From Opitutales bacterium (lineage in GTDB: Bacteria; Verrucomicrobiota; Verrucomicrobiia; Opitutales; PNEW01): a DNA stretch of 64,000 nucleotides. Made by a program: the position numbers. This document shows, piece by piece, positions 36,001-39,000 of this stretch (positions are counted from its first letter, which is position 1; each line of letters starts with the position of its first letter). The stretch lies in contig CBDANS010000007.1 in NCBI GenBank assembly GCA_965197745.1, positions 1,504,001-1,568,000 on the forward strand, in the 5' to 3' direction.

Positions 36001-39000
36001 CTTTCGCTTGGACCTAAACCCTTTTTGGATGATGGGAATAACTTTATCGCCAAAGCAGGCATTCCAGCGATCACTCATGGACCCGCTGCCATTGGGGCGC
36101 ACACCATAAATGAAGAAGTTTCGATTGACGAGCTGAAGCGGGTGGCGCTTACTTACGCATTAACCGCAATCAAATTCTGTAGTAACGACGATGAGTGATA
36201 TCATTTCTGAAAAACAAACCCTCGAAGAACGGTATCTGCGGCAGATTTTTATCCGCGATCAGATGACCGAGTTTGTTAAGGAACCATTTGTAATGAGTGG
36301 TTCTGATGGCGTTTATTATACGGATATTGATGGGAAACGCTACCTTGATGGTATTGCAGGAATCTTTGTCGCTTCAGTGGGCCATAATAACCGACGGGTG
36401 ATTGATGCGATAAAAGACCAGTTGGACAAAATGTCTTTTGCCCCGATCATGCACGGAACGAATGCATTAGCGGTTCAATTAGCCAATATGCTGGCAGAAA
36501 TTGCCCCCGGTGATTTAAGTGCGGTAAAATTTTGCAGTGGCGGAGCCGAAGCAAACGAAACCGCTTTTAAAATGGCGCGCCAGTATCATAAACTCAGTGG
36601 AAATCCTAACAAGTATAAGATTATCTCGCGCTACCATTCCTGGCATGGGGGCACAATGGGGTCCTTATCGGCGTCCGGATTAACCTCACGTCGTGTTGAC
36701 TCCGAGCCACTGGCAGCAGGTTTTGTTCATGTCTTTCCTCCTTACTGCTATCGCTGTCCCTTTGGTAAAGAATACCCCAGTTGTAATATTACCTGCGCCG
36801 GACTGATCGAGGACACAATCATTATGGAAGATCCGGATACCGTCGCTGCCGTAATTGTTGAACCGATTGGGCATACCGGTGGCATCATGGATCCTCCACC
36901 AGAGTATCTGCCCCTATTACGCGAATTTTGCGACAGGCATAACGTGCTTCTGATTTTTGATGAAATAATTACCGGGATAGGGCGCACCGGAGAAATGTTC
37001 GCCGCTGATACATTTGGTGTTGTCCCTGATTTGATTTGTTTGGGGAAGGGATTGTCGGGGGGATACATGCCTCTATCCGCGGTTCTTTGTCGAAGACCCA
37101 TCGCTGATAAATTCTGGGGCGATAAGGAAACAAATCCCGGCTTTGTCTCGGGACATACTTATGAAGGTAATCCCATTGCCTGTGCTGCAGGATTGGCGAC
37201 GTTAACGGAAATTATTGAAAAGGATTTATGCGCAAACGCACGTAAGGTGGGCAGCCATTTACGCCAAGGTCTGGAGGGACTTCGCAAGCATGGAATCATC
37301 GGGGACATTCGAGGGAAAGGAATGTTTTTTGGTGTAGAATTTGTCCGTGATCCTGTGACTAAAGAAAAATTCTCAGATGATATTCCGATTTCCACCCTTA
37401 TTGGGAAACGGGCTTTAGCAAAAGGTCTCCTGTTGCGGTATGACCCGCATTGGATGTCATTGGGACCACCCTTAATCCTGACGGAAGAGCAAGCTGATGA
37501 ACTTGTTTCCATTTTAGACGAAAGCATCACCGAAGTGTTGCAGGAAATAAATAATTAGAGCGGCAGTCCGACATTTATAAATATCCGGAGGGCGACGGCT
37601 GATCGTGGCCTTAACAACAAAGAGGTGGAGCGGGCTGCCTGACGGCCATAGCGTAACACTGCACAGCGACGGCTGTTCCCCAGCACGCTATGTTTAAATA
37701 ATGAATAACGGTTAACGCGCTACAGCACCGCGTTCCACATGATATTGATAAATATTTGGAGGGCCACGCTCCGTCGTGGCCGTAGCGTATTAGTGGAAAC
37801 GGGGCAATTTGCCGCTATGCGTAAGTTCAAATAAATAACAACAAGATGCACAATAGATACAAGCTCATGCCCCTTTTGTCATTGCGAGGAGTAATACGAC
37901 GCGGCTACCGAGTTCAGCATCTGCGGGACGACATCTTCCATTCCAGAAATATGGGATTAACCAATATCCCATATAAACCGATTATAAATATGTGCGCACA
38001 ATATATTACGTTTATATCCTCACCAATAAACGTAATGGAACACTTTACACAGGAGTCACTCGCAGTTTATTACGTCGCTTATGGGAGCATAAAAATAAAT
38101 TAAAGGTGGGGTTCACCAAGAATTACGATATTCATAGACTGGTATATCACGAATCCTTTTACGATATTGAAAATGCGATTCTACGTGAAAAGCAAATCAA
38201 AGCCGGTTCGAGAAAAAGGAAAATTGCCTTAATTGAAAAAGAGAACCCTTTTTGGAAAGATCTGAGCCGAGATTGGTATTCGTAAGAACAATGACTATTC
38301 GCCTGGATTGCTTCGTTGCATCACTCCTCGCAATGACAAGAGTAGAGCAAAAGCGAACACTATAATTTCTCTAGGTGGAGCGGGCTGCCCCTAGCACGCT
38401 ATATTTAAATAATGAAGAACCTCAAACGCGGTAGAGACACCGCGTTCCACCCGACATTGATGAAAATTTGGAGGGCCACGCGTCGTCGTGGCCGCGATTC
38501 AAGGTACAGCTTATAATGGAAAATACGCGGACGCGACAACGCGCGTCCCTCCATTATTCTCATGTTCCTATTATCCTGTGTTATCTAGAACAGCCAACCT
38601 GCAAACAGCATTATCGAACAGCGTGTTTGAACAGGGGTTTGGCTTTTTCCGGAAGCTTATCATAAACTTCCAGTGGCATCGGAGGGTATTGGATAACCCT
38701 CTGCTTGGGGTCATCATTAACAATTTTCATTTCTGTCGATCCTGGTATATATATATTCTGGTTCATCCACCAGGGCGCGTAACGGGCAACCATGGAGATA
38801 CGGGGCTCATCCGTTTTATTTGCCCCGCTCGCATGCCACATGCGACTGTCAAAAGCGAGGACGCTACCCTCAGATCCGGTCACCTGTATTTCATCGGGAA
38901 AAGGATCTAAAGTTGGTTCTTCACCATAGGAAGGATTTGTGTCTCGCTTATGGCTGCGCGGCACGAGGTGGGTTCCACCGTTATCCTCCCTAAAGGGGGA

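Follow-up and report, generated by a model that had tools for sequence, protein, structure and literature searches.

Ssn proteins are GIY-YIG endonucleases of about 94 amino acids that cut single-stranded DNA (ssDNA) site-specifically, beside cognate flanking hairpins named NTS or SRM (Chenal et al. 2025, Nat Commun, PMC11893778). Statements on Ssn below refer to excerpts of that paper. The family was defined via CDD cd10448. Four homologs were assayed and activity was reported in vitro. Binding was seen with ssDNA but not with RNA of identical sequence. Critical positions are the three nucleotides preceding the palindrome and the C that follows it, and mutants of Y6, Y17 and E64 of the N. meningitidis protein no longer cleave. 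The only cellular role shown, an N. meningitidis phenotype, is curbing transformation. A repeat lies near 71% of homologs and on both sides of 42%. The IS-like repeat-gene-repeat layout, and its analogy with REP/RAYT, were already pointed out. Supplementary Data 4 includes two Opitutae that have a homolog but no repeat enrichment. Our follow-up search of the literature library found no later work on Ssn.

Hairpin repeats of similar appearance form the CGTC-tagged REP superfamily (Di Nocera et al. 2013, PMC3733652). In the 2013 catalogue these repeats have no dedicated transposase. They are listed there for Proteobacteria, Chlorobi, Bacteroidetes, Spirochaetes and Thermotogae; Verrucomicrobia are not listed.

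Two gene-bearing units and their nuclease

We analysed a 64,000-nt stretch of an Opitutales bacterium genome, hereafter the window (GCA_965197745.1, contig CBDANS010000007.1, positions 1,504,001 to 1,568,000). An earlier note had described two near-identical 460-bp units with inverted ends, each with a 97-aa GIY-YIG ORF as its sole gene. Coordinates and content were right, and each unit has one intact ORF. The features, in window coordinates, are these.

37878..38337, plus strand: repeat-ssn-repeat unit, copy 1, 460 bp
37876..37946, plus strand: upstream end of copy 1, with GTC tag, ATTGC, GAG and a small variable part
37992..38285, plus strand: ssn-like gene in copy 1, 97 aa, intact, GTG start, Pfam GIY-YIG E 3.2e-13
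38304..38339, minus strand: downstream end of copy 1, a canonical hairpin reading inward (41.2 bits, E 2.6e-7)
41544..42003, minus strand: repeat-ssn-repeat unit, copy 2, 460 bp, inverted relative to copy 1
41542..41577, plus strand: canonical hairpin end of copy 2, on the 3' side of the gene (41.2 bits)
41596..41889, minus strand: ssn-like gene in copy 2, 97 aa, intact, GTG start
41970..42005, minus strand: upstream-type end of copy 2 (29.1 bits)

The two copies align without gaps and are 98.3% identical. All 8 mismatches are confined to the 5' part, and the encoded proteins are 1 residue apart. Both units start with GTCATTGCGAGGAG and close with its reverse complement. Read on the minus strand, the downstream end of copy 1 has the layout TTGTC-ATTGC-GAGG-variable-CGAA-GCAAT-CCA. 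The upstream ends of both intact copies lack the closing GCAAT. In copy 1, the place of the stem-closing GCAATCC is taken by GGCTACCGAG, a second small hairpin and CGACATCTTCCATTCCAG. This upstream end scored 30.4 bits with a covariance model, against 41.2 bits for the downstream end, and folded no better than shuffles. About 100 nt of the left flanks of the two copies are related, in the same orientation but only ~70% alike. From these flanks, only the hairpin part is repeated elsewhere, and a family search placed it in another repeat family. Contigs from 4 public runs break at the repeats over window positions 36800-43000, with joints that come from other copies.

The Pfam GIY-YIG domain spans residues 5-77 of the 97-aa protein, a size that fits the single-domain class of about 90-100 aa. 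The N. gonorrhoeae homolog is 47% identical (46.6% by tblastn), with a pairwise E of 8e-27 and a tblastn E of 5e-17. At its locus, 5 exact NTS repeats fall within 1.46 kb. By the homology threshold given in the excerpts of the Ssn paper (E < 1e-10 to Neisseria SsnA; PMC11893778), the window protein belongs to the family by way of the N. gonorrhoeae locus, not of the N. meningitidis protein itself. Residues Y8, Y19, R29, H33 and E66 are invariant across 30 homologs. Of these, Y8, Y19 and E66 correspond to Y6, Y17 and E64 by a numbering inferred from alignment with the Neisseria homolog. The label YhbQ/COG2827-type, used previously, proved imprecise: the solved UPF0213 protein 1ZG2 is a distant match (E 1.5e-5; 1YWL, E 0.37) and the Neisseria Ssn homolog is far closer. 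The best NCBIfam match was to a group I intron endonuclease, at 20.4 bits against a cut-off of 56. A GIY-YIG homing endonuclease was considered and rejected; there is no additional domain and the gene is intergenic.

We conclude with considerable confidence, for the explanation as a whole, that the window protein is an Ssn-family member, a predicted site-specific ssDNA endonuclease, and that the hairpin at the unit ends is its cognate site. The 460-bp units would then be repeat-ssn-repeat modules of the Ssn system, and the hairpin, repeated about 166 times, its target. By analogy with the four assayed homologs, the protein would bind this hairpin only when single-stranded, and only on the GTC-ATTGC-GAG...CG-GCAAT-C strand. 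The cut would fall a few nt 5' of the GTC tag. Since one end reads inward on each strand, the cuts would be expected just outside the two ends, one per strand.

A split-stem hairpin and gene-less derivatives of the unit

With at most 1 mismatch, GTCATTGCGAGG occurs 166 times in the genome; ten shuffled 12-mers gave 5-30 matches and the reversed pattern 5+5. These ends are arranged as 45 left-right pairs of 48-464 bp and 76 singles. An earlier nhmmer census had counted 153 ends and 46 pairs of 107-484 bp. The variant hairpin has the consensus GTC-ATTGC-GAG-variable part-CG-GCAAT-C. Briefly, it consists of a 5-bp stem base, a conserved GAG/CG internal loop and a hypervariable distal part, with a total length of roughly 23-63 nt. 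GTC, A and GAG are unvarying across 83 aligned ends. Outside the tag ~8 nt are conserved, with TT in 141-152 of the 166 ends. Copies in this genome read TTGTC-AT...AT-CCAGG, and many other phyla have a CGTC tag.

Stem pairing was assessed by covariation. Both sides had changed in 45 cells, compared with 11.8 in shuffles (0 of 500 reached 45). Stem cells were paired in 94.2% of cases, against 16-70% with slid partners. The 150 best covariance-model matches hold almost no variation to count. In more distant homologs the stems are compensated (ATTCT/AGAAT, ATTTC/GAAAT, TCCC/GGGA and GCCCT/AGGGC). Mismatches of the G·T type number 23 and those of the A·C type 10, a weak strand preference in an alignment that was fitted to the model. 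With DNA energy parameters, single ends folded no better than shuffled sequence (z +0.59, +1.66 and -0.18).

The window contains three further arrangements of ends.

16190..16403 (C7:1520190-1520403), plus strand: gene-less pair with an internally deleted ssn remnant, 214 bp
18967..19135, no strand assigned: further pair of ends with weaker model scores (15.3 and 25.0 bits)
60310..60413, no strand assigned: head-to-head dimer with no gene sequence, 104 bp, one arm with the compensated stem ATCGC/GCGAT

The last of these folds as a single long hairpin (-20 kcal/mol, z -1.96). The short pairs consist of two copies of this hairpin joined head to head, and 15 or more of them are copies of a single derivative with an internal deletion. 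In the genome, ssn-derived DNA is present at 20 places, 19 of which lie at most 120 bp from an end. Pseudogenes and 16 ssn fragments were recognised. A model of the deleted derivative gave 34 matches, 15 of them full length. That the short copies derive from the gene-bearing unit, as first proposed, is borne out for many of them by the ssn remnants and the 15 copies of one deleted form. Four genes had been placed between ends; the two in the window are intact, but the other two are broken, with an in-frame stop at C7:483586-483876 and a frameshift plus stops at C6:787861-788152. The 20 places with ssn-derived DNA and the 15 deleted copies therefore indicate that the unit once inserted at many sites and that a gene-less form multiplied. 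The enzyme needed for this was probably provided in trans.

The association of the nuclease gene with the hairpin ends extends across many phyla. Where 300 nt or more of flank was available (72 homolog loci), CATTGCGAGG with up to 1 mismatch was found upstream in 56, its complement downstream in 59, and both in 47. This reproduces the 55, 58 and 46 of 71 loci reported before. The subfamily occurs in candidate-phyla bacteria, Chloroflexi, Cyanobacteria, Bacteroidota, Proteobacteria and Verrucomicrobia. The published SRM search pattern, as the excerpts give it, matched 0 of the 4 window ends and 0 of the 72 homolog loci; across the genome it matched 16 times, versus 19 for a reversed control. 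The same regular expression found 2-6 matches in 7 of 8 control loci with classical hairpins, and none in the remaining locus, L155. By the paper's own screen, to the extent that the excerpts (PMC11893778) set it out, this genome is repeat-negative. The published figures of 71% and 42% are probably underestimates, because split-stem hairpins escape the pattern.

Residence, movement and rival explanations

The repeats may belong to a domesticated host system, in which nuclease and scattered sites work for the cell, for instance by cleavage, at the repeats, of single strands that enter or become exposed, which would tune recombination as in Neisseria, and the repeats are now immobile. We consider this credible but doubtful. 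An orthologous copy 1 occupies the same site, in the same orientation, in the relative G002; it is 85% identical and the neighbouring genes are 81-89% identical. Copy 1 has thus been kept vertically between genera, and the repeat population is old and diverged. The N. meningitidis phenotype, as excerpted from PMC11893778, points in the same direction. One possibility, by analogy with Neisseria, is that the system would curb recombination of incoming single strands. ComEC and DprA are encoded in the genome, which is weak evidence because the same families match in 10 of 14 control genomes. Against domestication, multiple gene copies, pseudogenes and many remnants are unlike a housekeeping gene. 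Moreover, most genomes of the phylum do not have the gene, and the Opitutales bacterium has no known natural competence.

A tentative and, in our estimate, equally doubtful proposal is that the unit acts, or acted until recently, as a true transposable element, with a hydrolytic ssDNA nuclease as its sole element-encoded enzyme and gene-less dimers mobilised in trans. Host replication and repair would copy or release the unit, starting from nicks just outside the inward hairpins, one on each strand. The stricter version, an active autonomous element that relies on its small GIY-YIG nuclease alone to move both itself and the gene-less pairs, is unlikely. Several observations argue for movement. 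The gene is patchy, being found in 9 of 201 genomes of the phylum at E <= 1e-8, and the ends come in lineage-specific bursts. Among these 201 genomes, at least 79 ends were counted only in G000, G171 and G012. The relatives G001 and G002, which are congeneric, differ with 130 and 178 ends, and intact genes sit at different sites in congeneric genomes. A homolog is present in all five, which ties the gene to the repeats: G000 (single-protein search), G171, G012, G001 and G002 (profile). Protein identity to other phyla (67-69%) is at least as high as that to other Opitutae (63-65%). Viral or proviral contigs hold 53 homolog loci by profile and 1 by single protein, with classical NTS-like hairpins, and a plasmid collection has homologs on 32 records, some of them chromosome-sized. 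Further signs are the pseudogenes, the 16 fragments and the deleted derivative with its 15 copies.

Site comparisons count against a transposable element. None of 45 pairs has a direct repeat of 2-9 nt abutting its ends, the form in which a target-site duplication was sought. The flanks run TT...AA and are pyrimidine-rich outside both ends; left and right flanks are no more alike than shuffled partners. No clean empty site was seen at five cross-genome sites compared. Between G001 and the syntenic G002 (400 kb each, about 93% identical), five candidate sites turned out to be messy replacements, with one 26-bp mini-pair and one truncated end. An empty site had been proposed for the pair at C6:507631-507849. 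Its absence from both relatives was confirmed, though not to the base: ~330 nt are missing there, more than the 219-bp pair alone. At the copy 2 site, a whole block of ~600 bp is missing from G001 and G002, and at the copy 1 site G001 has a different repeat instead.

The copies are also old. An identity of 85% or more is reached by only 4 pairs of elements. Related flanks accompany the two closest pairs and one of the remaining two; the fourth pair lacks them. Just 2 pairs reach at least 98% identity, both with related flanks. The retention of copy 1 at the same site in another genus, with the divergence of neighbouring genes, is a further argument against current movement. GIY-YIG nucleases hydrolyse DNA, and we know of none that carries out strand transfer. 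On any one strand a single end would be cuttable, unlike IS200/IS605. The sole cellular role shown in the excerpts of the Ssn paper, curbing transformation (PMC11893778), likewise speaks against an element that serves its own spread. Were the unit nonetheless transposable, its route would differ from the DDE, HUH, serine and tyrosine types, and the CGTC-tagged REP superfamily would gain its 'missing' enzyme throughout bacteria.

Homing among existing repeats is improbable. Here, the gene would be copied into gene-less dimers by break- or nick-induced repair, with the shared ends as homology. The gene does always lie between a left and a right end. At one orthologous site, a 222-bp element in G002 corresponds to a 26-bp mini-pair in G001, with the termini kept and a different interior. 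The window copies are 98% identical and their related flanks only ~70% alike, which also favours homing. However, these copies are inverted relative to the related flanks, which flank-guided repair would not yield. The end homology is only ~35-80 nt, and the spread of the dimers is left unexplained.

That the hairpins act as RNA, affecting transcript stability, termination or gene regulation, and merely travel with the gene is very improbable: the ends do fall within its 5' and 3' untranslated regions and stem covariation is also expected from RNA, but Rfam gave no match at E <= 1 in window positions 37000-43000, no T run follows the hairpins in either direction, most copies are distant from any ssn gene, and the published enzyme binds ssDNA and not same-sequence RNA in the excerpts of PMC11893778.

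Comparison with known systems

On the Ssn reading, the family today looks old, partly resident and REP/RAYT-like. The class had been called undescribed. This does not hold, as the excerpts of the Ssn paper (PMC11893778) already link this GIY-YIG family to hairpin repeats beside the gene and throughout the genome. We regard the system as Ssn with a variant of the hairpin repeat. What goes beyond those excerpts is the split-stem hairpin and the record of derivation.

Three points are of wider interest. Across phyla, a large subfamily carries a cognate hairpin with a split stem, which the published pattern, as excerpted, misses. The hypervariable insert tolerated between conserved hairpin parts is of practical interest; enzymes of this family have been proposed as programmable ssDNA cutters. 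Finally, the fossil record of pseudogenes, 16 fragments and 15 deleted copies bears on whether the unit was mobile before any domestication, a question left by the Ssn paper in its excerpted parts.

Ssn with NTS/SRM is the closest system. It shares the single-domain GIY-YIG protein (about 94-97 aa, 47% identity to the Neisseria homolog), the inverted hairpin repeats on both sides of the gene, amplified genome-wide, the conserved GTC before the stem and C after it, and the catalytic residues. The positions critical in PMC11893778, according to the excerpts, are the conserved ones in the present ends. NTS has a single 8-bp stem with a short loop, whereas the stem is split here. The flank is variable in the excerpts, but ~8 nt outside the tag are conserved here. 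Gene remnants inside gene-less pairs, seen here, have no mention in those excerpts.

The protein has the same minimal stand-alone GIY-YIG domain as UPF0213 and bacterial Slx1-like proteins (1ZG2, 1YWL; Dunin-Horkawicz et al. 2006, PMC1564403), including the lack of a C-terminal Asn. A C-terminal NPxWxDL part sets the present family apart from them.

The end repeats fit the CGTC-tagged REP superfamily, which includes Neisseria dRS3 and Rickettsia RPE-4/-6 (PMC3733652), by tag, AT stem start, tail and dimers. Both have an unpaired (C/T)GTC tag, a stem that starts with AT, a CCA tail (GCAATCCAGG here) and mostly inverted dimers (45 pairs here). The four families of that superfamily have uninterrupted stems of 8-9 bp and loops of 4-5 nt; in the present repeat only 5 bp form the base of the stem, followed by an internal loop and a distal part that varies.

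REP/REPIN systems with RAYT likewise place a low-copy gene between inverted hairpin repeats, with an unpaired conserved tag next to the stem. They comprise hundreds of dimers that fold as long hairpins, and they reside long in a lineage. RAYT is a relative of HUH tyrosine transposases and forms a covalent intermediate, whereas the present enzyme is a hydrolytic GIY-YIG nuclease whose gene is multi-copy, with pseudogenes. IS200/IS605 elements resemble the present units in the recognition of single-strand hairpin ends, in having no target-site duplication and in their small gene-less derivatives. Their hairpins both lie on the same strand, whereas the present ends are inverted, and the class of enzyme differs.

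The two window units and their terminal hairpins

The source genome (4.45 Mb, seven contigs, G+C about 45%) carries two 460-bp units, 3.2 kb apart. Each opens with GTCATTGCGAGGAG and closes with its reverse complement. The copies (identity 0.983) differ at eight positions, all within the 5' part. Each contains one intact 97-aa open reading frame, with a GTG start, encoding a GIY-YIG domain only (Pfam E 3.2e-13, residues 5-77). The closest named locus belongs to an Opitutales MAG (protein identity 80%). Evidence that GIY-YIG genes lie between inverted, repeated ends, as the earlier note observed, is strong. 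Of the genes that it placed between such ends, the two in the window are the only intact ones in the genome; two others, on contigs C7 and C6, are disrupted.

Units, related genes and neighbouring features (window positions unless a contig is named)
37878-38337: copy 1 unit, 460 bp, orientation opposite to copy 2
41544-42003: copy 2 unit, 460 bp, orientation opposite to copy 1
37757-37790, 38465-38495, 41440-41470 and 42040-42065: second hairpin repeat family
39606-40079: small protein with prepilin-type N-terminus (GFTLVE then hydrophobic helix), between the two units
43101-43559: small protein with prepilin-type N-terminus (GFTLVE then hydrophobic helix)
C7:483586-483876: ssn-like pseudogene with a stop
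C6:787861-788152: ssn-like pseudogene with a frameshift and stops

A hairpin repeat family unrelated to these ends (GGAGGGCCACG...CGTGGCC, with variants) flanks both units. A flank profile places the hairpin part of this second family at more than 100 genome positions. A third repeat (GGTGGAGCGGGCTGCC...AGCACGC, then ...GGTAGAGACACCGCGTTCCACC) adjoins the units, at window 38373-38400, and recurs at about 22 other genome places. Where the source genome and one relative (G002) carry unit copy 1, a second relative (G001) has a copy of this third repeat instead.

Allowing at most one mismatch, GTCATTGCGAGG occurs 166 times in the genome. Ten shuffled 12-mers gave 5-30 occurrences and the reversed pattern gave 10. 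The ends form 45 inward-facing pairs (48-464 bp) and 76 singles. They are built of modules. The hairpin common to all phyla comprises a (C/T)GTC tag, ATTGC, GAG(G/C), a hypervariable small stem-loop, CG plus two bases, GCAAT and C(C/T). Across 83 aligned ends, drawn from many phyla, GTCA and GAG never vary. Conservation extends about 8 nt beyond the tag at both ends: TT, in 141-152 of the 166, then a pyrimidine-rich stretch. The closing GCAAT is replaced by a further module at the upstream end of each intact unit. Because some copies have longer inverted outer modules, the 14-bp inverted repeat is no sharp boundary.

Nine end pairs face outward, with spacers of 41-65 bp (C4:88510-88566, C6:950794-950849, C7:733576-733633 and six more). 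Several of these spacers are alike, and the sequence between such tail-to-tail ends may be another module. Two arrays were noted at L042:342-2821 and L140, upstream of the homolog: hairpin copies recur at regular 106-bp spacing in a gammaproteobacterial MAG, and G137 has a repeat unit of ~115 nt, three in tandem, before the gene.

The stems covary. The close subfamily includes ATCGC/GCGAT and ATTAC/GTAAT pairs; more distant homologs in the same phylum have ATTCT/AGAAT, ATTTC/GAAAT, TCCC/GGGA and GCCCT/AGGGC. We built a covariance model of the end and realigned to it 119 matches from 18 variant-rich loci. In this alignment 94.2% of cells were paired, against 16-70% with slid partners. Cells changed on both stem sides numbered 45, whereas shuffles gave 11.8 and none of 500 reached 45. 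These figures lean towards the structure, since the alignment was fitted to the model and its sequences are related. Folding speaks against the structure: with DNA energy parameters, single ends folded no better than shuffles (z +0.59, +1.66 and -0.18), and only a whole 104-bp dimer folded better (z -1.96).

Linkage of gene and repeat across genomes

We compared 72 loci from many phyla, encoding proteins 57-80% identical to the window protein. The motif lies upstream in 56, downstream in 59 and on both sides in 47; at least one flank has the CATTGCGAGG motif in 68. Large end numbers occur in only three of 201 sampled phylum genomes: the source genome (166), G171 (123) and G012 (79). For relatives G001 and G002 the counts are 130 and 178. 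Besides the source genome, the four other repeat-rich genomes also encode a homolog according to a protein profile; that of G012 is a single distant Ssn-like protein (profile E 3.7e-12), and a single-protein query found none there at E <= 1e-8. At that threshold the protein is present in 9 of the 201 genomes, a patchy distribution within the phylum. The wider family comprises 3,869 clusters (50% identity, E <= 1e-10). Homologs also occur on viral or proviral contigs and in plasmid-collection records, some of chromosome size. At the viral and proviral loci, homologs are flanked by GTCATTCCCGCG...CGGGAATCCAG, which we take to be the Neisseria dRS3 repeat.

Remnants and probable past mobility

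Searching with the gene's DNA (nhmmer) identified 20 places: two intact genes, two pseudogenes and 16 fragments, 15 of them from the gene's 3' end. All but one of the 20 are no more than 120 bp from an end; 14 are inside a pair. The inner part of the 214-340-bp pairs (small hairpin, mid-gene remnant and last ~60 nt of the gene) was also modelled. The model matched 34 places, 15 at full length; these 15 include the 4-5 seeds and two locally duplicated pairs. Hence, one doubly deleted form has multiplied.

G001 and G002 are congeneric and about 93% identical. Their intact genes are at different sites and their repeat numbers differ. These differences, the remnants, the patchy distribution and the viral, proviral and plasmid-collection homologs speak for mobility. 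Other results speak against it. None of 45 pairs showed a target-site duplication, and comparison of five sites revealed no clean empty one. Of the element pairs compared, only four reach 85% identity; flanks are related in the two most similar pairs and in one of the other two, and the fourth pair lacks related flanks. In another genus copy 1 has the same site and orientation (85% identity, like neighbouring genes). The left flanks of copies 1 and 2 are roughly 70% alike over ~100 nt, in the same orientation, and the units themselves are inverted and 98% alike. A recent copying or conversion event, plus inversion of the segment between the two ends, would account for this arrangement, which is a single case. 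The unit has likely been mobile in the past. That the nuclease is its mobility enzyme, as the earlier note proposed, we consider doubtful.

Mini-pairs of 26-54 bp contain little beyond two termini (C7:931444-931491, C6:1500864-1500917 and G001 near 677,500). They look like internal deletions of a long palindrome. Where G002 has a 222-bp element, the orthologous site in G001 holds the 26-bp example. Separately, a few-kb segment is inverted between G001:C1:854,500-858,300 and G002:C2:472,700-479,200. Its breakpoints are at ends of the repeat family, in G001 next to a full-length unit.

Relationship to Ssn nucleases and CGTC-tagged repeats

Within the literature searched, joining GIY-YIG or the motif letters to repeat or family terms returned no relevant paper. 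The CGTC-tagged REP superfamily was defined by Di Nocera et al. 2013 (PMC3733652). These repeats have a CGTC or TGTC tag, stems beginning AT and a CCA tail, and are mostly inverted dimers. The superfamily takes in dRS3 and the Rickettsia RPE and, as its authors stressed, its members "apparently lack a dedicated transposase". SsnA, a 94-aa GIY-YIG protein of N. meningitidis (CDD cd10448), was described by Chenal et al. 2025 (PMC11893778). SsnA binds its extended repeat (NTS) only as single-stranded DNA, on one strand only, and cuts a few nucleotides upstream. Cutting depends most on the three bases before the palindrome, and binding most on the C after it. Duplex DNA and RNA are not acted on. 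Loss of SsnA increases transformation with repeat-bearing DNA about 5-fold. A related motif (SRM) lies near 71% of homologs, on both sides in 42%, and among genomes exceeding 200 SRMs 81% encode a homolog. Cleavage of the cognate repeats was shown for three more homologs.

At 46.6% identity (tblastn E 5e-17, pairwise E 8e-27), the window protein matches the product of an N. gonorrhoeae locus that lies among five exact NTS repeats. Among solved structures the closest, UPF0213 protein 1ZG2, reaches only E 1.5e-5. Hence, the earlier 'YhbQ-type' label is too loose. The published SRM pattern matched none of the four window ends, none of the 72 close-homolog loci, and 16 genome places against 19 for a reversed control. 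At eight control loci with classical hairpins the same expression gave 2-6 matches in seven and none in L155. For Lacunisphaera limnophila and Opitutus terrae, Supplementary Data 4 of PMC11893778 lists a homolog and 35 SRMs, where about 55-60 would be expected. The letters ATTGCGAG are absent from 12 of that paper's 14 supplementary files, those searched. Judged by sequence, the system in the window is therefore of the Ssn type, with a cognate hairpin that is built differently. We regard Ssn membership with a cognate variant repeat as highly probable.

By analogy with homologs for which this is in print, the protein would bind the hairpin of single-stranded DNA, on the GTC-reading strand, and nick a few nucleotides 5' of the tag. 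Given ends that read inward on opposite strands, nicks are predicted just outside each end, one per strand. Speculatively, host synthesis primed at such nicks could copy the unit. Another possible effect is the cutting of single strands, whether incoming or exposed, which would limit recombination in the way described for Neisseria. The genome has ComEC and DprA, but the same families also match in 10 of 14 control genomes.

The class is not 'undescribed', as had been claimed: the 2025 paper gives the core interpretation (PMC11893778) and the 2013 paper the repeat superfamily (PMC3733652). What the window adds is a new member whose variant cognate site escapes the published screen; the genome also preserves useful fossil traces of the gene-bearing unit. 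Residues Y8, Y19 and E66, invariant in 30 homologs, align with those whose mutation abolished cutting in SsnA (PMC11893778). Likewise, the GTC and the C after the stem, conserved here, correspond to the positions reported as critical there.
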